A stretch of 64,000 nt of DNA, taken from NCBI GenBank assembly GCA_965203905.1, contig CBDBDQ010000005.1:192001-256000 (forward strand), in the 5' to 3' direction. The notes under the pieces are model-generated. The model saw nothing but the letters and a program-made list of their open reading frames with translations, ran no database searches and was not told where the DNA came from. This DNA comes from Spirochaetia bacterium (GTDB lineage Bacteria > Spirochaetota > Spirochaetia > SZUA-6 > Bin103). The stretch's first letter is position 1, and every line of letters begins with the position of its first letter. Positions 1 through 54,975 of the stretch are shown here, piece by piece. Both the position numbers and the translations under genes were made by a program.

Positions 1-289
1 GACCCACCTAATCGCCGGCCCGGCGTCGGAGTGGTACCCGATCCGTCACGGGACGGGCGCTTGATACAGGAATGCCGAGCGAAGTGGAACTCTCGCCAGA
101 CCACGGAATGCCACGCGCATACGCCGTGAACTGCGACCATCTCAGACCGTCCAGCGCGGCAAGCTCGGCCGTCTGGTCACGAGCGTCCAGGGACCGTGAT
201 GGCCCAGGTAGCGCGGGCCATTCAGTTGCACTTGCACTGCGGTGACCGTCCGGCAATCCGCGCGTGGCCGGCGGGGGCGGCGGTTCAGC

Positions 290-320
290 TTGACCGCGAG
301 AAAGCGGGCGTGCTACACCT
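290..320 (+). promoter_or_regulatory. Possible sigma-70 promoter for the HNH gene
   Basis: TTGACC (290-295), 18-nt spacer, TGC-TACACC extended -10-like element, followed by GAGGTGG SD and GTG at 343. Confidence 0.3.
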
Positions 321-342
321 CGTGCCGAGGTGGCGTACACAA

Positions 343-987
343 GTGTCAGCCCTAGAATCGAGCGTCCTCGTCCTCAACAGCGGCTACACGGCAGTCCGTA
401 TCACCAACGCCCGGCGCGCCTTCATTCTGCTGATCCGGGAGGCGGCCGAGGTGGTGACCACGGATGCAGGCCAATTCCAGACCTACGATCTGGCAGCCTG
501 GATTCTGTGGTCGGAGCTGGTCCGCACCGGTTACAGCGTCGACGCGCAGGCGGAGGAACATGATCCGCCCGACTGGGTCCATACGCCACGCCTGGTAATC
601 GCGGTACCGCGGGTCATTCGGCTGCTTCGCTACAGCGGACGGCCGCAGCGGGAGGTGCGCCTTACCCGCCGTAACATCCACGCCCGCGACCTCGGTCGCT
701 GCCACTACTGCGGCCAGCGGTTCCCGAGCCGCGAGCTCACCGTCGACCACGTGATCCCGCGCTCCCTTGGCGGGCGCGACACCTGGGAGAACCTGGTGAC
801 CGCGTGCGTACCGTGCAACTCGCGCAAGGGCAGCCGCACCCCCCAGGCCGCCAACATGCGCCTGCATCGCACGCCGACCAAGCCGCGCACCAACCCGACC
901 ATCGTGCAGCGCCTGAAGAGCCCCAAGTACCGCGTATGGCGGCTGTTCGTGGACGAGTCCTCCACCCACCTCGGCGTCGGCGCCTAG
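343..987 (+). CDS. HNH endonuclease (McrA/HNH_5 family)
   Basis: N-terminal VLVLNxxY motif, RD..CHYCG...TVDHVIPRSLGG..WENLVTAC..CN..KG zinc-HNH motif; GTG start at 343 after GAGG (ORF track starts at 196). Confidence 0.9.
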   Translation: MSALESSVLVLNSGYTAVRITNARRAFILLIREAAEVVTTDAGQFQTYDLAAWILWSELVRTGYSVDAQAEEHDPPDWVHTPRLVIAVPRVIRLLRYSGRPQREVRLTRRNIHARDLGRCHYCGQRFPSRELTVDHVIPRSLGGRDTWENLVTACVPCNSRKGSRTPQAANMRLHRTPTKPRTNPTIVQRLKSPKYRVWRLFVDESSTHLGVGA

Positions 988-1063: not shown

Positions 1064-2053
1064 TCACCGGTCGGTGCTGGAGGCACCGCTGTCACGCTGG
1101 CTCAGTTCGTGCCTGATGGTCCGTTCCAGAGCCTCGCGCAAACCTATCGGGGGCCGGAATCCGGTTCCGTGCATGCGGTCAGTCGAGAATGTCGTGGTAC
1201 TGCAGAACTTACGGATGCGGACCGCGCTGATCGGCAACCGTCTCCCGGTGACAGCGGCCAGCACATCGCATGCAACACCGCCCAGGTACCCTATGGGATA
1301 CGGAATTCGGGCTCTGATGGCTGGGGGCCGGCCTAGCGTCGTCAAGACGATCTGGACCAGTTCTCCCATCGAGAGGTCGGGACCATCGGCATAGTTGAAC
1401 AGATGGGTGCCCGCCCCCAGGCTGAGCACGTGCACCAGGAACGCGCTTACATTTCCGACGTAGGCCATCGACTTCCGGTTACGGCCGCTGCCTACCATCA
1501 CGAATCGCCGGGACATGATCTGGCGCAGGAGCTGGTAGACGTTGCCCCGATTGCCCTCCCCGAATATCACCGTGGGACGGACGATCACTAGCGACCGCCG
1601 CTCGGGTGCCTCAGCCTGCCATGCACGATAGATCTGCTCGGCTTCCAGCTTCGAACGCCCGTACGCATTCAACGGCTCGGGGGACGTCCCCTCGGAACTA
1701 TTGGGCTCTGCCAAGCCATAGACTGCCGCCGAGCTTGTGAAGATCAACCGATCGATACCCAGCTCTCGACACGCGCGGCAGACGTTAGCGGCCCCCGCCA
1801 CATTTACTTGATGGTAGAGCGAGACCGGCTTGACATCATCGCGGTGCACTGCCGCCAGGTTATAGACGATCTCAGTCCCATCTAGGGCTGCTGTCAGGCC
1901 CTGGCAGTCACGTACGTCCCCCAGGCGTTGCATCCCATCGCCCCTAGCAGCCACGACGTCCACCGTCCTCACATCGTGCCCGCCGTCCCTCACCAATCCG
2001 GCGAGTCGCCTCCCTATGAACCCCCGGCCCCCAAGGATCCCTATGGTCGCCAT
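1064..2053 (-). CDS. gnu: NAD-dependent epimerase, GlcNAc-PP-undecaprenol 4-epimerase (Gnu)-like
   Basis: GGRGFIG Rossmann motif, YGRSK catalytic motif; AAVHRDDVKPVSLY, RPTVIFGEGNRGNVY, KSMAYVGN and KFCSTTTF blocks closely resemble E. coli O157 Gnu as recalled. Confidence 0.75.
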   Translation of the reverse strand: MATIGILGGRGFIGRRLAGLVRDGGHDVRTVDVVAARGDGMQRLGDVRDCQGLTAALDGTEIVYNLAAVHRDDVKPVSLYHQVNVAGAANVCRACRELGIDRLIFTSSAAVYGLAEPNSSEGTSPEPLNAYGRSKLEAEQIYRAWQAEAPERRSLVIVRPTVIFGEGNRGNVYQLLRQIMSRRFVMVGSGRNRKSMAYVGNVSAFLVHVLSLGAGTHLFNYADGPDLSMGELVQIVLTTLGRPPAIRARIPYPIGYLGGVACDVLAAVTGRRLPISAVRIRKFCSTTTFSTDRMHGTGFRPPIGLREALERTIRHELSQRDSGASSTDR

Positions 2054-2110
2054 ACGACCCTCCGCCGCTGCTTCATCCTACCCCGGATCCATGGTATATT
2101 TCCCAGCCGA

Positions 2111-2878
2111 ATGCCGACGCCGCTCCTCACGGTGATCATGCCCACCTACAACGCGCAGCGCTTCATTGCCGAATCCATAGAATCGGTCATCGCACAGACT
2201 ATCGATGATTGGGAGTTGCTGGTCGTCGACGACGCCTCCACTGATGCCACCAAACAGATCATTGCAGAGTACCAGGAGCAGGACGGGCGAATTCGACTAC
2301 TGCGCCGACCTAGTAACCAAGGACCAGCGTACGCTCGCAACTTCGCACTCGATCAGGCCCGCGGCCAGTGGATTGCATTCATCGACAGCGATGATATCTG
2401 GCACCCACAAAAAACCGAGAAGCAACTTTCGGCGATGCATCGCCATGGAGCCGACATCTCATACACTGGATATAGACGACGCCGCGATGGGGACCGGGAA
2501 GGGGTCGTGGTCCAGGTTCCCAAACATGTCGAATACCGTACCATGTTGCGGCGTAATCTCATCGCATGTTCCACCGCAATCGTGAGGAGAAGGACCTGCG
2601 GCAGCCTCAGGATGCCGCTCATAAGACGACGCCAGGATCACGGCTATTGGCTCGCATTACTGAGAGACGGAACACGAACCGCTGTCGGTGTCACAGAACC
2701 GCTGGTCTGGTACCGGCTGCATGCCGATTCCCTTTCGGCAAACAAATTGACCGCCGCTAGGTACTCCTGGAAGTTGCTACGGGAAGTCGAAAGGTTCAGT
2801 ACCGGAAAATCCCTTTGGCTATTCAGCGGTTATGCTCTCGAAGCCTTGAAGCTGCGCACACTCTCGAAGCGACCATGA
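2111..2878 (+). CDS. Glycosyltransferase family 2 (TuaG-like)
   Basis: VIMPTYNA, VVDDAST, IAFIDSDDIW and RRQDHGYWL motifs; ATG at 2111. Confidence 0.88.
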   Translation: MPTPLLTVIMPTYNAQRFIAESIESVIAQTIDDWELLVVDDASTDATKQIIAEYQEQDGRIRLLRRPSNQGPAYARNFALDQARGQWIAFIDSDDIWHPQKTEKQLSAMHRHGADISYTGYRRRRDGDREGVVVQVPKHVEYRTMLRRNLIACSTAIVRRRTCGSLRMPLIRRRQDHGYWLALLRDGTRTAVGVTEPLVWYRLHADSLSANKLTAARYSWKLLREVERFSTGKSLWLFSGYALEALKLRTLSKRP

Positions 2879-2906
2879 TCCGCACTAGACGTTTTCCCGG
2901 GCCGTC

Positions 2907-4007
2907 TCATGGTCCCACTATTCTTGTTAAATCAGCCGCCATTCGGTCATACCAATAGTGGCTTCGGAAGAACTCCCCGCGAGCTCTAGCGCCCCCACAG
3001 AGCCTGTTGTAGAGCTCCGGATTGTGCATTAGACGTACTATCGCGTCTCTCAAAGACGCAGACGATCGAGGCTCGACCAGGAGCCCGCTTTTCTCATCCT
3101 CGACCACCTCAGGGATCCCAGCCCAGCGCGTCGCGATGACCGGTCGACCACACTGCATTGCTTCCAATATGACACCCGGGTAGCCTTCTGACTCCCAATA
3201 GGTCGGCAGCAGCAACACGTCGTGCTGCCGGATTATCTCCGGTACCTCGCTGGGACTCACCGCACCACAGTAGGTGGCTATCGGGTGGTCCACCAGCAAA
3301 CTCATGTCAACGCCGGGAAGCACCGGCCCATAGAAGCTGAGCACACAGGAACCAGGAAGTTTGCGACAGGCCTCAAGGGTCTCCCGGAAGCCCTTCTCCG
3401 GACGGATCTGGGACATGAACAGCAACCGGAAAATCGTGGTCCGGATCCTGACGGGGCCCGCCGCTACATTCCTGGTGTTCGCATGCCATCGGAAGTTAGG
3501 ACGGGTACGAAAGTAAAACAGTTGACGTCTAGTCTGTACATAGATGACATCCGAACGCATGTACGTATGATCCGCCCACCAACGAAGAATAGAGCGACAC
3601 CGTTGGTAGCGTATAGCTAGGTCACCACCAAACACGCGTAACGCCAAAGGACGTCCGGCAAGTGTGCAGAGCAGCCACATGAACGCGCCCAGAGTCCAGG
3701 TGGTGCCGGCCGAGACGTTCAAAAATACAACTTGAACATGCTTTACCTGCGAAGCAGTTTGGCGGAAGATGCGAAACATCGTCATGATGTTGTTGCGTAA
3801 GGCCAGCCACCGTGTAAGATTGATTCGTGGACGACTTGTGTCGACCAGAGATATCTCGAAATCTCGGTCCCGCAAGCTTCGCACCATCTCCGAGAAGTTG
3901 ACGGCAGCACCGCCCACCGGGTTCGATCGAGTGGGCTCGGTAGGAGGCAGCGGCCCAACCAGAAGCACCCTTATGTCTTTGCTCAATCGCATTGCTATCC
4001 AGCGCAC
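2907..4007 (-). CDS. Glycosyltransferase family 4 (GT-B)
   Basis: PEKG, EGYPGVILEAMQCGRPVIAT and GIPEVV motifs. Confidence 0.88.
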   Translation of the reverse strand: MRWIAMRLSKDIRVLLVGPLPPTEPTRSNPVGGAAVNFSEMVRSLRDRDFEISLVDTSRPRINLTRWLALRNNIMTMFRIFRQTASQVKHVQVVFLNVSAGTTWTLGAFMWLLCTLAGRPLALRVFGGDLAIRYQRCRSILRWWADHTYMRSDVIYVQTRRQLFYFRTRPNFRWHANTRNVAAGPVRIRTTIFRLLFMSQIRPEKGFRETLEACRKLPGSCVLSFYGPVLPGVDMSLLVDHPIATYCGAVSPSEVPEIIRQHDVLLLPTYWESEGYPGVILEAMQCGRPVIATRWAGIPEVVEDEKSGLLVEPRSSASLRDAIVRLMHNPELYNRLCGGARARGEFFRSHYWYDRMAADLTRIVGP

Positions 4008-4826
4008 CTACCAAACGCGAGTCAAACGCTTAATCCAGTAGTTCCAAGTTGCCGGGTAGCAGAGCGATATTGCGGCACATCCAAGGTACGACATCCCACC
4101 GTGTCTTCGCTCCCGCAACGAGTACAACCGACGCTGAGGCGCACTCAATTTGCCTTCATGACGATCAAGAATGGCACGAACTCGGGTCACGACTTCCACC
4201 GTTGTACCGATGCGGTCACCGCCGTGACCGAGGTCCATGGTGTACAAGCACTGGGCAACCCGCAAGGCTGTACCCCACCGCCCTATCATCCGAATCCATA
4301 GATCGAAATCCTGTCCTGCCGCCAAGGTTTCATCGAAAGCACCGACCTCGCGAACCTTGTCGGTCTCAGTAAGAATCTGGTTGCCGACGCAGTTGCCCCA
4401 TAGAATATCGGGCAGATGAACGAGTATCTGGCCACGGAAACGTGGTGATGTGGATCCGTTTCTCAACTGCATCATATTGGATGCGACAAAGGAATACGTT
4501 GGTTGATAGGCGCTCAAGAGGGTCACGACGCGGTCTCGGTGAAAGTAATCATCGTCGTCCAGACCGGTATAGAAGGTGCCCCGGGCCAGGTCGATCCCGG
4601 TGTTGCGGCTGCCACAGGCTCCCTTGGTGCGACGGTTCGAATACCAACGCACACGTTCGTCTTGGATGGTTTCGCAGACCTCAAGACCCTCACCGCGGCT
4701 GCTGTCGTCGATCACGATGACTTCAATGTGTTGGTACGACTGGGAGAGCGCCGATGCTATCGCTCGACGCAGTAGGAGAGGACGTGCGCAGGTCGGAATT
4801 ACTATCGAAATCAGAGGATCAGACAT
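4008..4826 (-). CDS. Glycosyltransferase family 2
   Basis: ISIVIPT, VIDDSS, GLDDDDYF and QDFDLW motifs. Confidence 0.88.
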   Translation of the reverse strand: MSDPLISIVIPTCARPLLLRRAIASALSQSYQHIEVIVIDDSSRGEGLEVCETIQDERVRWYSNRRTKGACGSRNTGIDLARGTFYTGLDDDDYFHRDRVVTLLSAYQPTYSFVASNMMQLRNGSTSPRFRGQILVHLPDILWGNCVGNQILTETDKVREVGAFDETLAAGQDFDLWIRMIGRWGTALRVAQCLYTMDLGHGGDRIGTTVEVVTRVRAILDRHEGKLSAPQRRLYSLRERRHGGMSYLGCAAISLCYPATWNYWIKRLTRVW

Positions 4827-4864
4827 CTCACTCTGTCGGTGGTTCTGATCGGGATACCGGTCTA

Positions 4865-6142
4865 CTAAGGAGTGCTATGGACATTCGTGTAGGGCCGTGA
4901 GGTCAGGCGAACTCGACTACGAGACGTTGACGCGCCGATGGGTGTAGACTGAGTTGCCAGCGCTATCAAGAGCAGGACAAAGACACCGCGTGCGTCGAAC
5001 AGGTCCCCGGATATACTGCTCGAGATTAGGAGCAAGATCAGTGCTGCGGCAATTGCCGGGTCGCCGAGACCACGGCCATTGCGCCAACGTCTGATGAACA
5101 CCAATAACGGAAGACAGAAAAGCAATAGTCCTATGATACCACCTTCGGCAAACGCTTCGACGAATACATTGTGAGGGTAAAGGCCAAACGTATCAAGTTG
5201 TGCGAAACCGGCCAAGCCGATTCCGCCGACAGGGCTCCCTAGTCCTGCTACGATTCCATCAATTAACAGGATGCCACGATTGGAAGTGTAACCCTCAATT
5301 AGCAGAAGGCGGATAAATCGAGTGGCAAACACCGCTATGGCGCGGCTTCCCAGGTCGGTGAGTACGAGCGCCCCTCCGGCGATCACCGAGAGCAATAACG
5401 TGACCCGTAGGCGACGGTCTAATCCGCGAATTGCGGCATACGCGAGAGCACCAAGAACCAGTGCTATCAGCGCTCCTCGAGAACCGGAGAGGAGCACGAG
5501 GAAGGAACCAACCGGTACCACTATCAAGCCGACGAATCTAGCCCAACGATGGTTGGACTGGAACGCAATACGAAGGGCTGCCAGGGTCAAGAGCCCCATG
5601 TTGCGCCCGAACACATTAGGACCACCGCCCAATACACTCAACCTTCCCAGTGACGGGTTGGTAAACACGGATGCCACTCCCGCAACTGCGAGAACCAAGC
5701 CGAGCCCAAAGATAGCATACCAGAAACCACTGACTGTACTTCCGATTCCGCATAGCCGTAGCGCACCAACGGTAAGCACACAGGACCACGCAACAAACAT
5801 CAGGTCGTAGGCCTTGGCTCCAGCCAGAGACAGATCAGGTGCCCACAACGTCGTGGCCACCATGTATACGACGAACACAACGATCACGGCCGACCACGTG
5901 CGCACGCCGCCGGCGAACGACCGTACCGCCCCCGGACCTCGTCCCGCGGCGACGCCCAACAGCCACACCGACAGCGCCGCAAGCACGAGCAACCTGAGCT
6001 GTAAGTACCAGACAACCTCCTCGGATCCGATGAACTGACCCAGGTATGAACGCCCAACCAATTGAAACGTCCCAATCAGAAAGCCTGCCGCGACAGCTCC
6101 CAGTCGCCGGTCATGGTGGTGATTCCTAAGGTAGTTACTCAT
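4865..6142 (-). CDS. O-antigen polymerase/ligase family membrane protein (Wzy_C)
   Basis: Many TM segments, LSGSRGA, GGIGLAGF and YPHNVFVE..AEGG motifs. Confidence 0.8.
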   Translation of the reverse strand: MSNYLRNHHHDRRLGAVAAGFLIGTFQLVGRSYLGQFIGSEEVVWYLQLRLLVLAALSVWLLGVAAGRGPGAVRSFAGGVRTWSAVIVVFVVYMVATTLWAPDLSLAGAKAYDLMFVAWSCVLTVGALRLCGIGSTVSGFWYAIFGLGLVLAVAGVASVFTNPSLGRLSVLGGGPNVFGRNMGLLTLAALRIAFQSNHRWARFVGLIVVPVGSFLVLLSGSRGALIALVLGALAYAAIRGLDRRLRVTLLLSVIAGGALVLTDLGSRAIAVFATRFIRLLLIEGYTSNRGILLIDGIVAGLGSPVGGIGLAGFAQLDTFGLYPHNVFVEAFAEGGIIGLLLFCLPLLVFIRRWRNGRGLGDPAIAAALILLLISSSISGDLFDARGVFVLLLIALATQSTPIGASTSRSRVRLTSRPYTNVHSTP

Positions 6143-6162
6143 GGACCCGTTGGCGCCGTCGC

Positions 6163-7119
6163 TTAGATTCCTCGGTCGAGCTCACCGGCCAGCATTTCAC
6201 CTATCCTTAGCTCTGCCGAGCGTGGTCGCATTCGACGTCTGGCGCCGTCCGGGCAGCTGGTCAACTCACCTACCTTGACCGTGCTGTCGTCCGTGTACAT
6301 GTCGACTCTAATGTAGGACAGTGAGTGTGACAGCGAGCGTGCCAGCTTGAGCATCACGTCAAGACGCTTCGGCCTCGCGTCAGCAATGCGCCCTTGTGGA
6401 TACGCCCACTCGAGATCCAGCCTCTTCCAAGACGCGTCGTACCAATTCCTTGTATGGCACGTATAGCGTCCAGAGTCAACCTGAATGAGCCTCGGTACAC
6501 CGCCAAAACAGTGGACCTTGAAGTCCCGCGGCACAGGCCTACCGCCGTCGTCAAAAAAATCTTCCACCAGGATCTTCGGCTCAAGATAGCGATAATTAGA
6601 CTCCCGTGACACCCGATAGTAATTCATCCTCAGCCAGCGCTTGAGCACGGCGCGGTCGAACCCCTGACTCTTCTCTCTGACCAGAATAACCTGTCCACTC
6701 ATATGGGAAGGCTTGATTACACATGGAAACGCACCTAACCTAAGACGGTCGATTTCTTCTTCTGTACGTATAATTGCCAGCGTCTTCATCGTGTACTGCC
6801 AACCGACCATGCCTCCAATGTACGACTTTACGAACTCTTTGTCGGTAACAAACTGACGCAACGGTGAAAGCAGGGTTCCATCATTTCTGAGCCGAAAAAG
6901 ACAGTCATTGAACAACCTCGGGTTTCGATACCTGGGAACACGTCGCTGCCCAGAAATATAGCGCAGCGTGGAGTACAGTTTGTCTATTGGTGTTCCAGCT
7001 GGAAGGTGTGCCCGCAACGTCCTCGCAATCGCCAACAGCCCGGTGTGAATTGGCCCATGAGCACGCACCGATCTCTCCTTCAAGGGCAAAGTCCACTGCT
7101 CGATCCACCAGTCTCCCAA
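6163..7119 (-). CDS. TupA-like ATP-grasp amidoligase
   Basis: DKEFVKSYI, VIKPSHMSG, PKILVE, DFKVHCFGG, YIRVDMY and GELT motifs; start uncertain. Confidence 0.82.
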   Translation of the reverse strand: MGDWWIEQWTLPLKERSVRAHGPIHTGLLAIARTLRAHLPAGTPIDKLYSTLRYISGQRRVPRYRNPRLFNDCLFRLRNDGTLLSPLRQFVTDKEFVKSYIGGMVGWQYTMKTLAIIRTEEEIDRLRLGAFPCVIKPSHMSGQVILVREKSQGFDRAVLKRWLRMNYYRVSRESNYRYLEPKILVEDFFDDGGRPVPRDFKVHCFGGVPRLIQVDSGRYTCHTRNWYDASWKRLDLEWAYPQGRIADARPKRLDVMLKLARSLSHSLSYIRVDMYTDDSTVKVGELTSCPDGARRRMRPRSAELRIGEMLAGELDRGI

Positions 7120-7120
7120 T

Positions 7121-8632
7121 TCAATGTTGATGTCTCCTCTCGCGGACCGTCGCGATTGCTATGGCGCGCTTTAGATCCTCCATGAAGCGCCGTCCTCCTG
7201 GCAACATTGCGTGACTACCAATAAACACTCCGACATACAGCACGATGTTCAGCGCGATCCACCAGATTCCACTTCCTGAGGGGACCGCCAGTACCACTCC
7301 CGCGGCAATCAGCGCCGCTACGAAGGGTCGCCAAATTGATCCGAGGACGGCACCTCCACGCATCGACAAAGACGGCCCTACGTACCATATCTCGCCGACG
7401 AGGCTCACTGCGGTCGCTATTCCGTAACCGGCAGCGACGCCCACTGGGCCCCAAGTCCAGCCAACCGCCACGCCGCCAACGCTTGCTACACAGCGCATCA
7501 GTCGGACCACCATCAGTCTCCTGGAGTGCCCCCGTGGCACCAACAGCCATCCGACAAGCTTACCGACGATCCACGTCGCCCCCGAGAGTGTCAGCCAGCG
7601 CACCAGCGGTATCGCTGCGTCCCACTGCTTGCCCAATAGCACACTGACCACCAGCGGAGCTTCCACCGCCAATAAGGCGAGCGCCCCACAGCCTGCAAAT
7701 GCGGTTACCGTTAGCGTCTGAGCAAATAGTCTGTCGAACGCGGCAACGTCCCGTTGGAGACGACTAAGAGATGCTGGGACCACACGCTCCAATGGCTCCA
7801 CAAGATATGACAGTGGAGTCATCACGCTCACCGATGCGCGATTGTACAATCCGAGTTCCGACGCCCCGGCGACGACCCCCAACAGGGTTGGTGCCGCGTT
7901 CCTTGAAAAGTAGAACAGGATCGTCGAAGGTACAAGATTGTTTCCGAATCGTAGAACAGAAGATACATTCGTGGCTTTTTTTGGACGACAAGGTGTCCAT
8001 CCAGATAGTATCCAGTTCCACACGGTACGTGCCGTCTGCATCACCACATGCATTGCGACTAGAGCCCAGAATCCGCCACCTGATAGAGCCACAGTGACAC
8101 CCACGGAAATGCCGATCACATTGGATCCTATGCGTACCAACTGCAACGTCCGATACCGCAGCTGTCGCCTCATCAAGGCTTCATGCTGAGCTCCCACACC
8201 AATCGTAACAACCGTGACCGACATTGCTATCGTCGCGCCGATTACCCGGGTTTCGTCAAACAGCAGAGCCAGGAGCGGGGAGCATAGCGCGGTGACTCCA
8301 GCCAGCGCAAGGCCCAGCAAGCTGTTTATCCAGAACAACTTCGACAGTTGATCATCGCTCAAGTTCAAGCGCTGGGTGGATGCAGCGGTCAACCCCCAAT
8401 CACCGATTAGGGAAACTAGATTCAGCAAGATACTGCACATCGCGACGATTCCGAAGTCTTCGGGAGTTAGGAGCCGGGCAAGCACGGCGACTGCTCCAAA
8501 ACGGAGACACGCCTGAGACAACATCGCGACGATGCCAGCTCCCGTTCCTCGTATGCTGGCATCTCTTACTTGGTAGTATCGAGACTGCTCGTCGGAGTAA
8601 CTGTTGATATCTTGCTGATTCTGGCCAGACAT
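7121..8632 (-). CDS. wzx: Wzx-type polysaccharide flippase
   Basis: LARLLTPEDFG motif, about 12-14 TM segments, LGLYNRA. Confidence 0.85.
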   Translation of the reverse strand: MSGQNQQDINSYSDEQSRYYQVRDASIRGTGAGIVAMLSQACLRFGAVAVLARLLTPEDFGIVAMCSILLNLVSLIGDWGLTAASTQRLNLSDDQLSKLFWINSLLGLALAGVTALCSPLLALLFDETRVIGATIAMSVTVVTIGVGAQHEALMRRQLRYRTLQLVRIGSNVIGISVGVTVALSGGGFWALVAMHVVMQTARTVWNWILSGWTPCRPKKATNVSSVLRFGNNLVPSTILFYFSRNAAPTLLGVVAGASELGLYNRASVSVMTPLSYLVEPLERVVPASLSRLQRDVAAFDRLFAQTLTVTAFAGCGALALLAVEAPLVVSVLLGKQWDAAIPLVRWLTLSGATWIVGKLVGWLLVPRGHSRRLMVVRLMRCVASVGGVAVGWTWGPVGVAAGYGIATAVSLVGEIWYVGPSLSMRGGAVLGSIWRPFVAALIAAGVVLAVPSGSGIWWIALNIVLYVGVFIGSHAMLPGGRRFMEDLKRAIAIATVRERRHQH

Positions 8633-8885
8633 CGACAGCGGGCAGTATCTCCCACGTCGCTATCACGGCGCAAGCGAGTACACATTCAAGTGTACGGGGC
8701 TGAACCCGTAGCCATCCGATACACCGGCTGGCGCCGCTCAGGGGGCCTCGGGCTTGCGTTGACAACATATGATGCGGTGCAGAGATCGGTTGGAGTCTTG
8801 CCTGTGGCCGTCAGCCAGGGCGCCTCAACGTGGAGTGGATCAGGTATTGCGAGCGTAGATCTCGCTACTCGAAAGGGCAGCGAAG

Positions 8886-10154
8886 GTGGTCTTGACGAGC
8901 ACGCTCCCTATCGGATCAAATCACGTTGTGATCGATGCCCAGGACGCTGGTGGCAGCTGGAGTACGCTGGATGCTGGAGCCCTGAACCACGATAGACCGT
9001 CGCCGCGAGACCACCTCACCACTGTCATTCGCAGTACCACGCATGCACGCGCCGGGCTGGTCGGCAACCCGTCCGACCTGTTTGGCGGCAAGGTGATCTC
9101 GCTGCTGTTCGATGCGTTCGCGGCCCACGTCTCGCTGTACGAGTCGGAGCGGCTGACGGTGCTGCCCAATACGCGGGACGCTACCAGCTTCGACGACATG
9201 GCGGAGCTGGTCCGCTATCGGCGCCAGCACGGCTACTACGGGGGGCTGCGCCTGATCGAGGCGATCCTGGTGCGGTTCGACCACTGCTGCCGCGAACGCG
9301 GCATCGCCCTGCCGCGGCGCAACTGCACCATCGAGTACCACTCGGATATTCCGTTCGGTGTGGGGCTGGGTGGCTCGTCGGCGATCATAGCCGCGGTGTT
9401 CAACGCGCTGATGCAGTTCTACGAGCTCACCGAGGCGGACATTCCCAAGGCCGAGCAGCCCAATGTCATTCTGGAGGCGGAGACGGTGGAGCTGGGAATC
9501 AGCGCCGGGCCGCAGGACCGCGTGGTAGCGGTCTACGGGGGCGTAGTGGCGATGGACTTCTCCCCCGGCGCCTATGCCCGCAATGGCGGTCGCCATGGCG
9601 ATTACCGGCGGCTGGCTCCGGATCTCCTCCCGCCGCTGTTCGTGGCCTACCACGAGGGGTTGTCCAAGTCCTCGGGCTCCATCCACAACGTCGTGCGCTA
9701 CCGTGCCGAGGTCGAGCATGACCGGGCGATCACGGAGGCCATGGCCGCCAAGGCCGCCCTGGTCGACGAAGCGCTCGCGGCACTGCATCAGGGGCATGGC
9801 GAGCGCATCGGCGCGATCATGGATCGTGACTTCGACCTGCGCCAGTCGGTGTACGGCCTGCCCCCCGATCAGATACGCATGATCGCCATTGCGCGCGAAC
9901 AGGGAGCACACGCCAAGTTCACCGGATCCGGTGGGGCCGCCGTCGGCACCTATGTGGACGCTGCGCATCTGCGGCTGCTCAAGGGGGCCTACGAGGACGA
10001 AGGGTTCACGGTGGTGCCGGTCCGGGTGGCCGCGGCGCACAGGCCGTGCCGGTCCGCGGCCGGCGCCCGAGCCGTCCTTGATGAAGCCGTAGTGGGCAAA
10101 CCCGGAGCACCGGCTTCTCCCACGGTGCGCGTCGGATCTGCGGCGCGGCCTTGA
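8886..10154 (+). CDS. GHMP kinase, glucuronokinase-like
   Basis: ARAGLVGNPSD, GYYGGLRL, IPFGVGLGGSSA, GISAGPQDRV..VYGG and AKFTGSGGA blocks match the Arabidopsis glucuronokinase pattern; true start uncertain (similarity begins near 9025). Confidence 0.8.
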   Translation: MVLTSTLPIGSNHVVIDAQDAGGSWSTLDAGALNHDRPSPRDHLTTVIRSTTHARAGLVGNPSDLFGGKVISLLFDAFAAHVSLYESERLTVLPNTRDATSFDDMAELVRYRRQHGYYGGLRLIEAILVRFDHCCRERGIALPRRNCTIEYHSDIPFGVGLGGSSAIIAAVFNALMQFYELTEADIPKAEQPNVILEAETVELGISAGPQDRVVAVYGGVVAMDFSPGAYARNGGRHGDYRRLAPDLLPPLFVAYHEGLSKSSGSIHNVVRYRAEVEHDRAITEAMAAKAALVDEALAALHQGHGERIGAIMDRDFDLRQSVYGLPPDQIRMIAIAREQGAHAKFTGSGGAAVGTYVDAAHLRLLKGAYEDEGFTVVPVRVAAAHRPCRSAAGARAVLDEAVVGKPGAPASPTVRVGSAARP

Positions 10155-10903
10155 ATGCCGTCCTCCTCGCCGCGGGCTACGGTACGCGCCTCCGGGCGCT
10201 GTTCCCCGATACGCCGAAGGCGTTGATCGAGATCGCCGGGCGTCCCGTCCTCGCTCACCTGCTCGACAATCTCGCCCGGTCCGGCCTCGTCGATGGTGTC
10301 ACCATCGTTACCAACGACCGCTACCACCCCGCCTTGCAAGGCTACCTCGACTCGCATCCGCCGCGCCTCTCCACCTGCCTGCTCACCGATGGGACCGGTA
10401 CCGAACAGGATCGGCTCGGCGCGCTCGGCGATCTGCAGTTTGCTCTCGACCACCTCGATCGTCGCGAGGATCTCCTCGTCACGGCGACCGACAAACTGCT
10501 CACCTTCGAGCTTGCGGCCCTCCTGCGCTGGGCGCGGCAGCGTGCCGCGCCGGTCAATGTGTGCGTGCGGCTGTCGAGTCGCGCCCATCTTGCAGGCAGG
10601 CACGGCTGCGTGCTGCTCGACTCCGACGCGCGTATCGTCGACTTCGAAGAGAAACCCCGGAACCCGAAGTCGCGGCTCGCCAGCCTGGCGATCTACGTGC
10701 TGCCGGTGGCGGTGCAGCCTCTGGTGCGCGAGTACCTGCTGCAGGGCGGCGACGCGGACGCTCCCGGCTACTTCCTGGGCTGGTTGGCGCAGCGTGCCGC
10801 CGTCTACGGCTACGTCGCCCCGGGCCCCAGCTACGATGTAGGTACTCCCGCTACCTACGCGGCTGCGCAGCGCGCCTTCCGCGCACCCGATATCGAGGCC
10901 TGA
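10151..10903 (+). CDS. Sugar-1-phosphate nucleotidyltransferase
   Basis: LAAGYGTRL...PKAL, FEEKP and YDVGT motifs; TTGA overlap with the kinase stop. Confidence 0.88.
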   Translation: MNAVLLAAGYGTRLRALFPDTPKALIEIAGRPVLAHLLDNLARSGLVDGVTIVTNDRYHPALQGYLDSHPPRLSTCLLTDGTGTEQDRLGALGDLQFALDHLDRREDLLVTATDKLLTFELAALLRWARQRAAPVNVCVRLSSRAHLAGRHGCVLLDSDARIVDFEEKPRNPKSRLASLAIYVLPVAVQPLVREYLLQGGDADAPGYFLGWLAQRAAVYGYVAPGPSYDVGTPATYAAAQRAFRAPDIEA

Positions 10904-10949
10904 TCGCCGTCGGTTCCAAGACCACCGCGGTCCGGGCTATGCTGCCGCC

Positions 10950-11234
10950 ATGGCTACTGCAACCTGGAATGGGGCCGTTCTCGCCGCGTCGGATACGTTC
11001 GAGACCGTCGAGGGGAACATCTACTTCCCGCCCGATACCATCAACCGTGAGCACTTCGTCGAAAGTTCGCACCGTACGGTGTGCGGCTGGAAGGGCGAAG
11101 CCAGCTACTACGATCTGCAGGTGAACGGTGAGACCAATGCCAACGCGGCATTCTACTACCCCGATCCGCTCCCGGCCGCGATGAAGGTCAAGGGCTACGT
11201 GGCGTTCTGGAACGGCGTCGAGGTCAGCGAGTAA
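10950..11234 (+). CDS. DUF427 protein
   Basis: VEGNIYFPP, CGWKGEASYY and IKG/VKGYVAFW motifs. Confidence 0.88.
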   Translation: MATATWNGAVLAASDTFETVEGNIYFPPDTINREHFVESSHRTVCGWKGEASYYDLQVNGETNANAAFYYPDPLPAAMKVKGYVAFWNGVEVSE

Positions 11235-11252
11235 ACTGCCGCCGCCGCCAGG

Positions 11253-11660
11253 TCACGGCGCGGACGGATGATCGGTCCCGGTGCCGGGCTTGGGGAAGAA
11301 CTGGTCGATGAGAATCGCGTTCCCGTCCGGGTCGCGGCATGCGATGTGAGCCGGACCCGTGCCGTCGGGATCGGTGTCGGTCTGCAACTCGATTCCCCCC
11401 GCAATGAGGGAGTCCCTGATCTCCCGGATGTCCGTGAACTCGTCGAGCTGTGAGCCATCGCGGCGCAGACCGGGGTTGAAGGTGAGGATGTTGCCTTCGA
11501 ACATGCCCTGAAAGAGGCCGATCGTCGCGCTCCCGTTGACCATGATCAGGTAGCCGGTACCATCGCCGCCGGCGCGGGAGAAGCCGAGCTTCTCGTAAAA
11601 TGCCTTGGCGACCTGCAGATCCTTGACTGACAGACTCACCGAGAACGCACCGAGATCCAT
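11253..11660 (-). CDS. VOC/glyoxalase family protein
   Basis: LGAFSVSLSVKDL..FYEKLGF, IGLFQGMFEGNILTFNPG and DPDGNAILIDQ motifs. Confidence 0.85.
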   Translation of the reverse strand: MDLGAFSVSLSVKDLQVAKAFYEKLGFSRAGGDGTGYLIMVNGSATIGLFQGMFEGNILTFNPGLRRDGSQLDEFTDIREIRDSLIAGGIELQTDTDPDGTGPAHIACRDPDGNAILIDQFFPKPGTGTDHPSAP

Positions 11661-11839
11661 CTCACCATGAGCCTACCACACTCGGAACCCTCTGCCAGCG
11701 GCGCCGGCAATCAGCCCGGGGCCCCCGGAAACCGCACGTAGCCGACATTCGTGCTGCGTACTATGATCCACTTCTATATTGATGCACGAAGCACGCACGA
11801 TCTGGTGGCGCAGCGTTGGCCCGATCGCTGGCGGCCGAT

Positions 11840-14566: not shown

Positions 14567-16144
14567 ATGAGCGAGCGACGCGACGCCGCCGGCGGGCACC
14601 TGCTGGAGGCGCGCGACATCGTGAAGCGGTTCGGCGACTTCACCGCCAACGATCGAGTGACCCTGCGCCTGCGCTCGGGCCAGATCCACGCCCTGCTGGG
14701 CGAGAACGGTGCCGGCAAGTCGACCCTGGTCAAGATCATGTACGGCGCGCTGCAACCCACGGCGGGCAGTCTGCACTGGCGTGGGCAACCCGTTTCCATC
14801 CCCAATCCGGCGGCCGCCCGGCGGCTCGGCATCGCCATGGTGTTCCAGCACTTCTCGCTGTTCGAGGCACTCACCGTGGTCGAGAACATCGCCCTTGCCA
14901 TGCGCGGCGCGTTCGACCCGGCGGCCCTGGGCCGGCGCATCGCACGGGTCTCGCGTGAGTACGGGCTGCCGCTGAAGCCCAGTGCGCTGGTAGCCGACCT
15001 CTCGGTCGGCGAGCGGCAGCGGATCGAGATCGTGCGCTGCCTGTTGCAGGAGCCGGAGCTCCTGATCATGGACGAGCCGACCGCGGTGCTCACGCCGCAG
15101 GAGGCGGACCAGCTCTTCGTCACCCTGCGCCGCCTGGCGCGCGACGGCTGCGCGGTGCTGTACATCTCGCACCGGCTGGAGGAAGTGAAGCGGCTGTGCC
15201 ACGAGGCCACGATCCTGCGCCTCGGCAAGGTGGTGGCCGAGGTCGACCCCGAGGTGGAGACCGCCGCCTCGCTGGCGCGCCTCATGGTGGGGGCGGACGT
15301 GCACGAGGTGGAGGCCGCGGGTCACACCACGGACGGCACGCCGATGCTGAGCGTCAGCAACCTGTCGCTGCCGGCCGGCGGACCGTTCGGGGTGGCGCTG
15401 CGCAATGTCGCCCTGGAGGTGCGTGCGGGTGAGGTGGTGGCAATCGCCGGGGTGGCCGGCAACGGCCAGTCCGAGCTGTTCGAGGCGCTGTCCGGGGAGC
15501 GCATCGCTCCGGCGGCCGAGTCCATCACGATCGGCGGCCACCACTGCGGCACGCGCGACGTGACCGCGCGCCGCCAGCTCGGCGCCGCCTTCGTACCCGA
15601 GGAACGACTCGGCCACAGCGCCGTGCCCGGGTTCATGCTGGCCGACAACGTGCTCCTGACCCGCCACGCCTCCGACCCCGGCATGGTGCGCGCCGGTTTC
15701 ATCGACCGTGCCAGGACGCGCAGCGCGGCGGCGCGCGTCACCGAGCGGTTCGACGTGCGGGTCAGCCAGGAGAATGCGCGGGCCGGGTCGCTGTCCGGCG
15801 GCAACCTGCAGAAGTTCGTGGTGGGACGGGAGCTGGACCGCAACCCGCAGGTGCTGGTGATCAACCAGCCGACCTGGGGAGTTGACGCCGGCGCCGCGGC
15901 CCTGATCCGCCAGGTGCTGTCCGACATGGCTCAGGCCGGTGCCGCGGTCCTGGTGATCAGCCAGGACCTCGACGAGATCTTCGAGATCGCCGACCGCATC
16001 GCGGTGATCTCGCGCGGCGAGCTGTCGGAGTCCTATCCCGCGGGTACGATCGACCGCGAACGGATCGGCCTGCTGATGGCCGGCGCCCACGAGAGCGCAG
16101 CCGGCGCGCAGGAGAGCGCCACCGGCGCTCAGGTCACGGCGTGA
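14567..16144 (+). CDS. Nucleoside/purine ABC transporter ATPase (CUT2 double-domain)
   Basis: GENGAGKST, LSVGERQR, DEPTAVL, LSGGNLQK and QPTWGVD motifs. Confidence 0.92.
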   Translation: MSERRDAAGGHLLEARDIVKRFGDFTANDRVTLRLRSGQIHALLGENGAGKSTLVKIMYGALQPTAGSLHWRGQPVSIPNPAAARRLGIAMVFQHFSLFEALTVVENIALAMRGAFDPAALGRRIARVSREYGLPLKPSALVADLSVGERQRIEIVRCLLQEPELLIMDEPTAVLTPQEADQLFVTLRRLARDGCAVLYISHRLEEVKRLCHEATILRLGKVVAEVDPEVETAASLARLMVGADVHEVEAAGHTTDGTPMLSVSNLSLPAGGPFGVALRNVALEVRAGEVVAIAGVAGNGQSELFEALSGERIAPAAESITIGGHHCGTRDVTARRQLGAAFVPEERLGHSAVPGFMLADNVLLTRHASDPGMVRAGFIDRARTRSAAARVTERFDVRVSQENARAGSLSGGNLQKFVVGRELDRNPQVLVINQPTWGVDAGAAALIRQVLSDMAQAGAAVLVISQDLDEIFEIADRIAVISRGELSESYPAGTIDRERIGLLMAGAHESAAGAQESATGAQVTA

Positions 16145-17199
16145 AGCTGCTGTTCGAGCAGCGCCCGCAGCCGAGCCGGGTGATGACGGTGGTCTCTCCC
16201 GTCCTGGCCATCGTGCTCATGGTGATCGTCGGCGCCATCCTGTTTGCGGCGCGCGGCGTCGACCCCTGGCGCGGGCTCTACGTCTACTTCATCGAGCCGG
16301 TGGCCTCCCTGTGGTCGATCGAGGAGCTGGTGGTCAAGGCCACGCCGCTGGTGCTGATCGGCGTCGGCCTGGCGGTGTGCTTCCGCGCCAACGTGTGGAA
16401 CATCGGCGCCGAGGGCCAGCTCACCCTGGGCGCCGTCGCCGGCGCCGCCATCCCGATCCTGGCCAACCAGTGGCAGTCGCCACTGGTGCTGCCGCTGATG
16501 ATGCTGCTCGGCATGGCGGGCGGGATCGCCTGGGCGGCGATCCCGGCGCTGCTGCGCAACCGCTTCGGCGCCAACGAGATTCTCACCAGCCTGATGCTGG
16601 TGTACGTGGCCCAGCTCCTGCTCGACTGGCTGGTGCGCGGGCCGTGGCGCGACCCGGAAGGCTACAACTTCCCCGAGTCGGTAGCGATGGAGGGGTTTCA
16701 GCTGCTGCCGACGCTCGGCTACAGCCGGGTGCACCTGGGCGGCGCCTTCGCGGTGCTCGCGGTGCTGGTGCTGTTCCTGTTCATGGCGCGGACGCTGAAG
16801 GGCTTCGAGATCGAGGTGAGCGGCGCGGCCCCACGCGCCAGCGGCTTCGGCGGTTTCTCGCGACCGCGCACCGTGTGGTTCTGCCTGGCGCTCTCGGGCG
16901 CCCTGGCCGGGCTCGCGGGCATCGGCGAGATTGCCGGCCCGGTGGGGCAGCTGCAGCCGGTGATCTCGCCCGGCTACGGCTTCACCGCCATCATCGTGGC
17001 GTTCCTGGGCCGACTCAACCCGCTGGGCGTGCTGTTCGCCGGGATCATCCTGGCGATCAGCTACCTCGGCGGCGAAGGGGCGCAGATCGAGCTGGGCCTG
17101 TCCGACAAGACCGCACAGGTGTTCCAGGGCACCCTGCTGTTCTTCATCCTGGCCAGCGACACCCTGATCCGCTACCGGGTGCGGGTGGTACAGAAATGA
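16141..17199 (+). CDS. Nucleoside/purine ABC transporter permease 1
   Basis: WNIGAEGQ, NEILTSLML and GYGFTAIIVAFLGRLNP motifs. Confidence 0.92.
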   Translation: MKLLFEQRPQPSRVMTVVSPVLAIVLMVIVGAILFAARGVDPWRGLYVYFIEPVASLWSIEELVVKATPLVLIGVGLAVCFRANVWNIGAEGQLTLGAVAGAAIPILANQWQSPLVLPLMMLLGMAGGIAWAAIPALLRNRFGANEILTSLMLVYVAQLLLDWLVRGPWRDPEGYNFPESVAMEGFQLLPTLGYSRVHLGGAFAVLAVLVLFLFMARTLKGFEIEVSGAAPRASGFGGFSRPRTVWFCLALSGALAGLAGIGEIAGPVGQLQPVISPGYGFTAIIVAFLGRLNPLGVLFAGIILAISYLGGEGAQIELGLSDKTAQVFQGTLLFFILASDTLIRYRVRVVQK

Positions 17200-17263: not shown

Positions 17264-18307
17264 ATGCTGAGGAGCTTGAGAATCTCGAACTATCGCGCCT
17301 TTCGTGAACTCAGATTGGACGAATTGAGCCGCATCAATCTTATCAGCGGCCGCAACAACTCCGGCAAGACGACAGTGCTCGAAGCTCTGCTGCTGCTGTC
17401 CGCGGGACATCCGGAAATCACCTTGCATACTTCCATCATCCGCGGGATGACGTCGGAGCGTCTACCGCCTTCCGCGATTCCGCTGATCTATTGGAGACAG
17501 ATGTTTACCTCGCTTGATTTCGGGACACCCATAGAGATCAGCGGCGAACACCAATCGTGCGGATCCTTAGGCATGACGGTCGAGATGGAGCATGAGGACA
17601 TCGTGAAGACGTCACTCACTAACTCCAACGAAGTGTTGTTAGGAGAGGACCTGCAAGATCCTAAGCTCCTGGCCACCATCCGACGCGGTGATGATCGCTG
17701 GCAACGACGCATCCAGGTAACGGACAAGGAGATTCGCATGGAGCGCCGAAAACAGCCCGTCCTGTTCTCGGCTTACATCGTTCCTGCAGGAATCGGAGAC
17801 CTGAAATCGGACGCCGAGTGTCTTGGCGCCTTGAAGAAACAGAAGCAGGGTCATCGAGTTGTAAGAGCGCTGCAGCTCGTCGATCCCTCCCTGTCCAGTC
17901 TCGAAGTCATTTCGCAAACAGGTTCGCCCATGATCTGGGCAGACACCGGCTTGTCCGAGCTGGTTCCACTGCCAACCGTGGGCGAGGGCATGGTACGCGT
18001 AGCAAGGTTGGCGATGTGCATGGTGCTCGCCCGAGGCGGAGTACTGCTCGTGGACGAGATAGAAAACGGTATCCATCACTCCATCGCCGGCGACATGTGG
18101 CGCTTCATCCTGAGCGGCGCGCGGGAGCTGGATGTTCAGGTGTTTGCGACAACGCACAGCTACGAATGCGTAGCAGCGGCACAGTCGCTCAACAGCGATG
18201 AACTGATGTTGCATCGGATCGAAGCTACGGAGAGCAGCCATCGCTGCGTCACCTACCGTCCGCAACACATAGAAGCGGCTTTACGCCACAACATGGAGGT
18301 ACGTTGA
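17264..18307 (+). CDS. ABC-type (AAA_15/AAA_21) ATPase of cassette 1
   Basis: GRNNSGKT Walker A, GEGM signature, LLVDEIENGIH Walker B, TTHS H-loop; lower-GC codon use. Confidence 0.88.
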   Translation: MLRSLRISNYRAFRELRLDELSRINLISGRNNSGKTTVLEALLLLSAGHPEITLHTSIIRGMTSERLPPSAIPLIYWRQMFTSLDFGTPIEISGEHQSCGSLGMTVEMEHEDIVKTSLTNSNEVLLGEDLQDPKLLATIRRGDDRWQRRIQVTDKEIRMERRKQPVLFSAYIVPAGIGDLKSDAECLGALKKQKQGHRVVRALQLVDPSLSSLEVISQTGSPMIWADTGLSELVPLPTVGEGMVRVARLAMCMVLARGGVLLVDEIENGIHHSIAGDMWRFILSGARELDVQVFATTHSYECVAAAQSLNSDELMLHRIEATESSHRCVTYRPQHIEAALRHNMEVR

Positions 18308-18311
18308 GGCG

Positions 18312-18986
18312 ATGAAATCGCCTGCGTCCGCTGCTCAGCTTCTCGTCGAGGGAACGGATCCCTACCACGTGTTTCGCGAGTTCTGCAAATCATGGAGTTT
18401 GTCTGACATCGAAGTATGCAACTTCGGTGGAATCACGCAACTACGACCATACCTCGATGGAATGGTAAGAGCACCGGGATTTCCAAATGTCGAGAGGATT
18501 GGGATCATTCGCGACGCTGAAGAGTCCGCAAGGTCGGCATTCCAGAGCGTCCATGATCCGTTACAGAACGCCGGTCTTGACGCTCCCGACAGTACCGATG
18601 AGGTAAGCTCCGGTTATCCGGCCGTTTCGGTGTTGATACTTCCGGATGAAAACAGCCCGGGTAATCTGGAGTCCTTAATCTGGAGGAGTATCAATTCGAG
18701 TCCGGAAGTGCCGTGCATCCAGGAGTTCCTTGGATGTCTGGAAGAGATCGAAGGAGTCACTATCACTCGGCCCGACAAAGCACGTGTCCACGCGTACTTG
18801 GCTGCGAAGCCGCGTCCGAACGCGTCTGTTGGCGTTGCTGCCCGGAAGGGATACTGGAATCCGCAGCATCCCGTATTCTCCAGACTTCGGCGCTTTCTCA
18901 CTATCCTGAATGGCTCGGCAAGTAGATCGAGTGCACCGGGCGCCAAGCCCCGCAACGACACGGACACCTCCGGAGTGGCTCGATGA
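18312..18986 (+). CDS. DUF3226-like TOPRIM-fold protein (cassette 1 partner)
   Basis: LLVEGTD, GIIRDAE, ILPD...GNLESL and DKARVHAYLA motifs. Confidence 0.75.
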   Translation: MKSPASAAQLLVEGTDPYHVFREFCKSWSLSDIEVCNFGGITQLRPYLDGMVRAPGFPNVERIGIIRDAEESARSAFQSVHDPLQNAGLDAPDSTDEVSSGYPAVSVLILPDENSPGNLESLIWRSINSSPEVPCIQEFLGCLEEIEGVTITRPDKARVHAYLAAKPRPNASVGVAARKGYWNPQHPVFSRLRRFLTILNGSASRSSAPGAKPRNDTDTSGVAR

Positions 18987-32246: not shown

Positions 32247-32559
32247 CCGTCATCTCATGATAGCCGATCGGACTATCTGCGACACTACCTCCAACGAGTG
32301 CGGACCCGAAAGACGCGCCCCTGACGTGAGAGTCCCGCCGGTGGGCGGACCACGTCGGGCTTGTCAGAGTAACAGCACCTCCGACGCCATCGTACTTGCT
32401 CTCCTTCGCCATGCGGATGGCTGCAAGTGTGCTCGACTTCTGGCGAGCATGGTTCGATTGTGGTACTCTCCCTCCGTTGCAAAATGTGCCTGTGCCATGC
32501 CATATGCCGATTGATACCCTACACACCAAGCCCGCGTCATAAAGCGCGGGTGCACAACC

Positions 32560-33849: not shown

Positions 33850-33852
33850 TCC

Positions 33853-54487: not shown

Positions 54488-54506
54488 CGATACGGTTCAC
54501 GTACCC

Positions 54507-54959: not shown

Positions 54960-54975
54960 GGAACTCGGTTCAAGC

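Follow-up and report, generated by a model that had tools for sequence, protein, structure and literature searches.

A candidate two-gene glucuronate salvage module beside a surface-polysaccharide locus in a bacterium of the Spirochaetia

The kinase and nucleotidyltransferase genes

A 64,000-nucleotide stretch of the genome of a Spirochaetia bacterium (assembly GCA_965203905.1, contig CBDBDQ010000005.1, forward-strand positions 192,001 to 256,000; hereafter the window) contains two adjacent genes, encoding a GHMP kinase (P0001) and a sugar-1-phosphate nucleotidyltransferase (P0002), that lie beside a polysaccharide locus (Table 1) and may serve in the activation of free glucuronate. The genome comprises 7.99 Mb in five contigs, with the window on the 7.79-Mb contig C5, and is rated at 98.7% completeness. 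Both open reading frames (ORFs) listed in a preliminary description of the window are borne out by the ORF map.

The kinase and the transferase are encoded by separate ORFs and are not fused in the window. Their overlap is 4 nt long (TTGA), with the kinase stop codon TGA at 10152-10154 and the TTG codon of the transferase at 10151. Kinase loci were compared as a set of 85 (80 metagenome stretches and five loci from genomes, designated by L numbers). The TTGA junction is also found in L006 and L007, where the transferase starts at 7245 and 3418, respectively. The L027 transferase (1555) opens with TTGA too, and L026 shows CTGA at the equivalent site. The non-ATG start within the overlap suggests that translation of the second gene is coupled to that of the kinase and is possibly low-level. 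The overlap had been noted in the preliminary description, and conserved copies of both genes occur together in L006, L007 and L026-L029.

The conserved core of the kinase extends from about aa 44 to aa 385, and most relatives are approximately 340 aa long, so translation may in fact begin farther downstream than 8886; near the start, in-frame ATG, GTG or TTG codons occur at 8886, 8892 and 8928 only. The N- and C-terminal extensions are common to close relatives only. A scan of positions 8400-11800 detected no consensus sigma-70 promoter or terminator in the intergenic region upstream of the kinase, and nothing relevant elsewhere.

Family assignment of the kinase

P0001 has the conserved domain PF00288 (GHMP_kinases_N; E-value: 1.6e-12, 47.9 bits against a cut-off of 22.3). 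PF08544 was not reported for P0001 in the Pfam scan and was reported for close relatives. The translation contains a phosphate-binding motif of the PxGxGLxSSA type (IPFGVGLGGSSA). All five sequence blocks quoted in the preliminary description are present: GNPSD (aa 60-64), GYYGGLRL (aa 116-123), AGPQDRV (aa 207-213), LLPPL (aa 246-250) and, towards the C-terminus, KFTGSGGA (aa 344-351).

The kinase is similar to the kinase domain of a carp glucuronokinase with putative uridyl pyrophosphorylase (GKUP; P0193; 43% identity over 330 aa, E-value: 2e-81) and to glucuronokinase 1 of Ziziphus (P0212; 39% identity over 348 aa, E-value: 1e-70). The two reference sequences, whose names come from their source records, are orthologues of the Arabidopsis and zebrafish proteins on which the assays were done. 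In a single alignment, the plant and fish sequences are 47% identical to each other, and the window kinase is 20-23% identical to eight HddA-like kinases drawn from genomes of the same phylum. No NCBIfam model claims the kinase: the mevalonate kinase model scores 52 bits (cut-off 163), HddA 41.4 (600) and Fkp 18 (721). A sequence search of the PDB returned no solved glucuronokinase (GlcAK) structure among its matches.

A quick maximum-likelihood tree was built from 83 rows, reduced from 105 by an 80% redundancy filter; L085, in which the kinase is split, was left out of the set, and P0239 sits on a very long branch. In the tree, a branch of length 2.95 lies between all 75 GlcAK-like rows and the eight HddA-like rows, and its support in the Shimodaira-Hasegawa-like approximate likelihood-ratio test (SH-aLRT) is 100. 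The window kinase falls into a six-row clade with L006 and L026-L029 (support 100, branch length 0.61). Conservation gives the same picture. At 64 columns that are at least 90% conserved both in 10 eukaryotic fusion or GlcAK rows and in 79 other bacterial rows, 58 residues of the window kinase are identical, against 20 in the HddA-like rows. Family-conserved residues kept in the window kinase include GNPSD, GYxGGxRL, QDRV, H267, R273 and R319, and four arginines (R122, R212, R273 and R319) are kept there and absent from the HddA-like rows. Identities, tree and conserved columns thus agree in grouping the kinase with the plant and fish glucuronokinases, as the preliminary description had it, and no grouping with HddA was found. 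P0001 is accordingly classified, by its sequence, in the glucuronokinase sub-family of GHMP kinases.

The family is large and mostly bacterial. A word-index search returned 520 matches; among the 120 listed, 22 had been named glucuronokinase by JGI and 98 were nameless. When 50%-identity representatives were searched exhaustively, 2291 matches had E-values of 1e-3 or less, and 356 clusters had values of 1e-30 or less. Among the 150 representatives listed, 43 are at least 480 aa long; most of these have 600-680 aa, and their kinase part is C-terminal, in the second half of the protein. Exact look-up named several of these long fusions, namely the carp "glucuronokinase with putative uridyl pyrophosphorylase" (P0193), two from Mucoromycota fungi and two from ichthyosporeans, and it also identified the Ziziphus enzyme (P0212) among the representatives. 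A further long ORF, P0037 (580 aa), resembled a kinase fusion but was rejected, because its first 230 aa are a meaningless arginine-rich stretch that arose from over-extension of the ORF in high-GC DNA. The family is carried by 582 metagenome stretches and is rare in the phylum, with four of 301 sampled genomes positive, including that of the window. Cluster names in the ESM Atlas were generic only (GHMP, heptose kinase and mevalonate kinase), and the clusters were bacterial.

The preliminary description had presented the pair as a eukaryote-style route. This framing fails, given 356 clusters and 582 metagenome stretches, the JGI names, and the bacterial homologues already reported in 2010 (PMC2823444, in the part available). 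The pair is to be seen as the bacterial version of an already known salvage route, not as a eukaryote-style oddity. In a reduced test of 38 kinase rows (LG+G4), the window clade is nested among bacterial rows with a support of 97, and a clade uniting the window and eukaryotic kinases, a group named after the tree had been seen, is disfavoured (approximately unbiased test, p-AU 0.023). Descent of the eukaryotic GKUP from such an operon is therefore not claimed.

Type of the nucleotidyltransferase

P0002 has the conserved domain PF00483 (NTP_transferase; E-value: 1.1e-20, 74.7 bits), and otherwise only PF12804 and PF01128 were matched. Its translation holds an N-terminal signature of the GxGTR(x)nPK type (LLAAGYGTRLRALFPDTPKAL), FEEKP (the EKP motif) and YDVGT; the GxGTR and EKP motifs presumably contribute the catalytic residues. 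The best relatives in the PDB are GDP-mannose pyrophosphorylases (57 bits). A plant-type UDP-sugar pyrophosphorylase (USP) was considered and ruled out: plant USP belongs to the large UDPGP family, whose domain is about 470-600 aa long, and P0002 has just 250 aa and the three domain matches above.

Over its whole length, P0002 can be aligned with carp GKUP (residues 3-244; 28% identity over 251 aa, E-value: 2e-20). In a quick 52-row tree, with SH-aLRT as its sole support measure, with no RmlA or GlmU rows and with P0239 left out, a branch with a support of 98 separates the window type of transferase and 20 eukaryote-type fusion N-domains from GalU-, ManC- and MurU-like rows. The N-domains of fish and ichthyosporean GKUP in turn match the window type best (45-79 bits), with no GalU-type neighbour among the matches listed. 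A search with P0002 for longer proteins returned 55, none of them with a GHMP domain; the kinase fusions appeared only in the exhaustive search of representatives. By this comparison P0002 is not of the GalU type and appears to represent a bacterial type whose closest counterpart is the N-terminal "uridyl pyrophosphorylase" domain in the GKUP fusions of fish and protists. A separate gene of the GalU type is present elsewhere in the window genome.

The pair in other bacteria

Neighbouring nucleotidyltransferases were located in the kinase loci by a profile built from trimmed seeds, and 84 locus rows were kept after L085 was dropped. A nucleotidyltransferase adjoins the kinase in 48 of the 80 metagenome loci (directly downstream in 39, directly upstream in nine). 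In 17 loci that show 900 nt or more on each side, none is found, and 15 loci are undecidable (eight show none but have one side visible, and seven are too short). GalU-type transferases account for 42 of the 84 locus rows (35 downstream and seven upstream). The window type is found only beside kinases of the window clade, in L006, L007, L026, L027 and L029 and partly in L028.

Other arrangements of the pair were also seen. Nine metagenome loci (L055, L057, L066, L067, L079, L083, L084, L098 and L101) have a GalU-type transferase ahead of the kinase. In P0196 (626 aa, metagenome) a GalU-type transferase is fused N-terminally to the kinase, making a second fusion in which the transferase type is unlike that of eukaryotic GKUP.

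Searches of all 85 loci with exemplar proteins (phmmer) showed that in four loci a same-strand gene for UDP-glucose dehydrogenase (Ugd) precedes the kinase by 18-80 nt. A GalE/TviC-like short-chain dehydrogenase/reductase (SDR) occurs near the pair in 11 loci, 10 times downstream of the kinase beyond a GalU-type transferase and once upstream. These neighbours link the kinase family to UDP-glucuronate metabolism in other bacteria, where the GalU neighbour of the kinase may feed Ugd. L031, L033, L054 and L090 show an apparent ugd-kinase-galU-SDR operon, with the de novo and salvage routes side by side.

A gene of the inositol-monophosphatase family is convergent to the pair in L007 (4345-5238, minus strand) and L026 (about 5807-6700, minus strand), and its homologue in the window genome lies elsewhere (C5:43467-44393).

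Glucuronate supply and use in the genome

No Ugd-family gene was found in the window genome when it was checked for ugd, as the preliminary description had suggested. PF00984 (the UDP-glucose/GDP-mannose dehydrogenase family) has no match in this genome, and the positive control matched in 11 of 14 genomes. The best TIGR03026 score is 26 bits (cut-off 189.8), and PF03721 gives just a partial Rossmann match of 31.6 bits. The genome encodes the uronate isomerase UxaC (649 bits) beside a KDPG aldolase, so free hexuronates are predicted to be metabolised in the cell. Transposase genes of the IS110 and IS66 families lie between a GH32/ABC-permease cluster and this UxaC-KDPG aldolase pair (L106 4510-8036, from the window's own genome at C5:668509-672035).

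One candidate consumer of UDP-glucuronate was set aside. The SDR at C5:3824781-3826235 is the best SDR match, yet it has only sub-threshold scores to the GalE, dTDP-glucose-dehydratase and similar models.

The neighbouring polysaccharide locus

The Wzx/Wzy polysaccharide locus named in the preliminary description is real. It comprises a flippase, a Wzy_C protein, three glycosyltransferases, a TupA-like ATP-grasp protein and an SDR (Table 1). The C-terminal domain of Campylobacter jejuni Cj1438, which has a TupA-like fold, is described in the accessible part of a published study as forming an amide on the C6 carboxylate of glucuronate (PMC11800379). Because a TupA-like ATP-grasp protein is present here, the polymer made by the locus may contain an amidated uronic acid.

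The locus is an island of low GC content (0.56-0.57, against 0.62-0.72 nearby), and the kinase-transferase pair has 0.62-0.66. Low-GC stretches of the window (0.56-0.59) lie at 2001-8000, 32001-34000 and 54001-56000, and the remaining region has 0.62-0.75. That the first of these coincides with the Wzx/Wzy locus suggests horizontal acquisition.

Table 1. Genes and features of the kinase-transferase pair and the adjacent polysaccharide locus (positions in the window).
Feature	Position	Strand	Domain or model match; remarks
HNH endonuclease gene	196-987		left bound of the polysaccharide locus
SDR-family NAD-dependent epimerase/dehydratase	1064..2053	-	Epimerase, E-value 3.9e-31
GT2 glycosyltransferase, TuaG-like (teichuronic-acid type)	1928..2878	+	TuaG 255 bits, under the 400-bit cut-off; Glycos_transf_2, E-value 1.3e-43
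GT4 glycosyltransferase	2907..4007	-	Glyco_trans_1_4 / Glycos_transf_1
GT2 glycosyltransferase	4008..4826	-	Glycos_transf_2, E-value 6.6e-23
Wzy/O-antigen-ligase family membrane protein	4865..6142	-	Wzy_C, E-value 6e-10
TupA-like ATP-grasp protein, candidate uronate-carboxylate amidoligase	6163..7119	-	PF14305, E-value 2.7e-35
Wzx-type MOP flippase	7121..8632	-	Polysacc_synt_3, E-value 1.9e-65; NCBIfam MOP flippase 184.7 bits, under the 273-bit cut-off
Intergenic region between divergent flippase (-) and kinase (+)	8633..8885		ORF map
GHMP kinase P0001 (422 aa, GTG start)	8886..10154	+	PF00288; conserved core about 9015-10040
Sugar-1-phosphate nucleotidyltransferase P0002 (250 aa, TTG start)	10151..10903	+	PF00483

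Farther into the window, a two-gene candidate defence cassette of the AbiL-like / PDC-M38 type occupies 17264-18986 on the plus strand. It consists of an AAA ATPase (PADLOC AbiLi 192 bits, PDC-M38A 185 bits) and a DUF3226 protein (PDC-M38B 44 bits) and separates the two permease genes (16141-17199 and 18983-19903) within an ABC transporter operon of the Bmp family.

Comparison with known systems

Arabidopsis GlcAK (At3g01640, EC 2.7.1.43) belongs to the same GHMP sub-family as the window kinase, and the first step proposed here, from glucuronate to glucuronate 1-phosphate, is the same. Pieslinger et al. cloned the Arabidopsis enzyme and, in the portion of their paper available, noted homologues in "a few bacteria" (PMC2823444, 2010); the GNPSD block of the window kinase also occurs in a Lilium peptide quoted there. 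Plants pair GlcAK with USP, whereas the partner in the window is a short PF00483 transferase. Plants also have Ugd, which the window genome lacks, and they feed the route from myo-inositol oxygenase (MIOX), which was not detected in the window genome by a search whose control was silent.

Both parts of zebrafish GKUP (DrGKUP) have counterparts in the window, as the alignments with the carp protein indicate (43% for the kinase, and 28% over the whole domain for the transferase). In the available text of Gangl et al., the zebrafish N-domain (DrUP) is said to resemble short bacterial nucleotidyltransferases, the type to which the window transferase also belongs, and stand-alone prokaryotic homologues are listed; a bacterial transferase-kinase pairing is not mentioned in that text (PMC3938481). 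DrGKUP is one protein with the transferase followed by the kinase, whereas the window has two genes with the kinase first and a 4-nt overlap.

Bacterial pairs of a GlcAK-like kinase and a GalU-type transferase share the kinase family with the window pair, and their transferases are likewise adjacent and often overlapping. These transferases lie across the 98-support branch from P0002, however, and some belong to the ugd-kinase-galU-SDR operons. HddA/HddC (heptose 7-phosphate kinase and heptose 1-phosphate guanylyltransferase) and Bacteroides Fkp (fucokinase/GDP-fucose pyrophosphorylase) follow the same logic as the window pair, with a GHMP kinase and then a nucleotidyltransferase feeding surface glycans, but HddA and Fkp represent other GHMP sub-families (41 against 600 bits and 18 against 721 bits, respectively, when the window kinase is scored), and HddA is split off in the tree. 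Three features are particular to the window: a transferase that appears to be of the GKUP type rather than the GalU type, encoded as a separate, coupled gene; the lack of a Ugd-family enzyme; and a uronate-amidoligase-like gene nearby.

Proposed model

The two genes probably constitute a glucuronate salvage module that feeds the neighbouring surface-polysaccharide locus. In this model, the kinase would phosphorylate free D-glucuronate at C1 with ATP, as expected from orthology. The coupled transferase would then join glucuronate 1-phosphate to an NTP, most likely UTP, to give UDP-glucuronate, as its kinship to the fish GKUP domain suggests. As the genome has no Ugd-family gene, this module would be the one route to UDP-glucuronate that can be recognised, if the cell makes this sugar nucleotide at all. 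The likely customer is the divergent Wzx/Wzy locus, whose polymer would contain a uronic acid with an amidated carboxylate. Free hexuronate would be expected in the cytoplasm, given the uronate isomerase gene beside that for KDPG aldolase. The core of the model is well supported because homology, synteny and the missing ugd gene agree. The earlier proposal that free glucuronate is activated for the polysaccharide is consequently kept in part: the kinase family, the coupled transferase, the lack of Ugd and the TupA-like ATP-grasp protein speak for it, while the eukaryotic framing and the host-glycan source are dropped. Its substrate, nucleotide and destination are predictions from sequence.

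A stronger version of the model is offered only tentatively, being rather doubtful. It holds that salvage is the sole route to UDP-glucuronate, that an amidated uronic-acid surface polysaccharide depends on scavenged glucuronate, and that P0002 represents, as an unfused prokaryotic protein, the "putative" pyrophosphorylase domain found in the GKUP enzymes of animals, fungi and protists.

Several observations weigh against the salvage model. The contamination rating of the genome is 7.9%. At the kinase, the six-row window clade departs from the family consensus at six of the 64 conserved columns, and in the AGxQDRVxQVY loop it carries L209P and Q215A, the latter being the HddA-like state. At the transferase, NCBIfam gives sub-threshold matches only, the best of them to haloarchaeal AglF (73 bits against 400), and with P0002 as the query a ManC-like N-domain (P0125, 78 bits) outscores the fusion N-domains (54-69 bits; fish, 54). 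UTP is therefore only the most likely nucleotide of P0002, and kinship to the GKUP N-domain, although not clean, is probably the best available reading. The pyrophosphorylase activity of zebrafish GKUP is itself given as extremely low in vitro in the available part of its description (PMC3938481), and a search of open-access full texts found no study characterising a bacterial enzyme of the glucuronokinase family. As to supply, a search of the genome found no myo-inositol-1-phosphate synthase gene; the MIOX result has little weight, its control having matched nowhere. No gene of glycoside hydrolase family GH67, GH115 or GH88 was found there either, which leaves the host-glycan source of glucuronate suggested in the preliminary description without support. 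As to use, no confident UDP-glucuronate-consuming enzyme was identified in the genome. Finally, a PF00984 protein is present in all five other genomes tested, including a close relative that carries L006. The absence of ugd is thus a trait of the window genome and not of the module, and the pair is not a general stand-in for ugd, as the relative has both the same pair and a Ugd-family gene.

Alternative explanations

The same succession of kinase and nucleotidyltransferase could act on another sugar, such as galacturonate, a different uronic acid, or a neutral or amino sugar, if the window kinase belonged to a small clade of shifted specificity within the GlcAK family. The separate, fully supported six-row branch (length 0.61), a partner transferase unlike the GalU type found beside most bacterial members, the two substitutions in the conserved AGxQDRVxQ loop and an identity of only about 40% to enzymes of the assayed type would all fit such a shift. 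The plant and fish enzymes, however, both reported as specific for glucuronate (PMC2823444 and PMC3938481, both in the parts available), are themselves just 47% identical. The retention of 58 of the 64 family columns, including R122, R212, R273 and R319, and the association of the family with ugd elsewhere also argue for glucuronate, and the TupA-like ATP-grasp protein fits a uronic acid, though galacturonate would fit equally. Another substrate is consequently considered unlikely. An HddA/HddC-like pair making NDP-heptose for the polysaccharide would account for the nearest solved structures by sequence (HddA-like only, with 3k85 at the top; E-value: 8e-13) and for weak NCBIfam matches to HddA (41 bits) and HddC (45 bits). 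These scores are far below the respective cut-offs of 600 and 300, however, and this explanation is effectively refuted by the tree, in which the two groups are split with full SH-aLRT support, together with the low identity to the HddA-like kinases of the phylum and their match to only 20 of the 64 conserved columns.

The pair could also make NDP-glucuronate and adjoin the Wzx/Wzy locus by coincidence, its product serving other glycoconjugates or the recycling of glucuronate. In favour of this, the flippase gene runs on the strand opposite to the pair, the polysaccharide locus differs from the pair in GC content as described above, and a Pfam scan of the neighbouring ORFs (133 of 235) shows varied kinase flanks across other bacteria. 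In L006 the polysaccharide context is not kept, the neighbours of the pair being mobile-element genes and an ABC transporter. By contrast, L007 has the same flippase gene directly upstream of the pair on the opposite strand, L026 has a close homologue of the window SDR 2 kb upstream of the kinase (E-value: 2e-139), and the locus itself contains the TupA-like ATP-grasp gene. A chance neighbourhood is thus rated as quite improbable, and delivery of the product to the adjacent locus is preferred.

Implications

Many capsules, exopolysaccharides and glycoconjugates are built with UDP-glucuronate as a donor. To our knowledge, textbooks give a single bacterial route to it, via Ugd. A working kinase-plus-transferase route would be a second entry point, through which the free glucuronate available to the cell would be linked to polysaccharide synthesis, and the absence of a Ugd-family gene from the window genome sharpens this prediction. 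One-pot cascades for UDP-glucuronate synthesis rely on the Arabidopsis kinase, and glucuronokinase (GlcAK) is reportedly mentioned in a hyaluronic-acid cascade paper and in a 2025 review of regeneration cycles; if it works, the pair would offer bacterial enzymes for such one-pot synthesis. Should the stronger version of the model hold, P0002 would offer a tractable bacterial model for establishing the role of the GKUP N-domain, the activity of which was barely detected by its discoverers.

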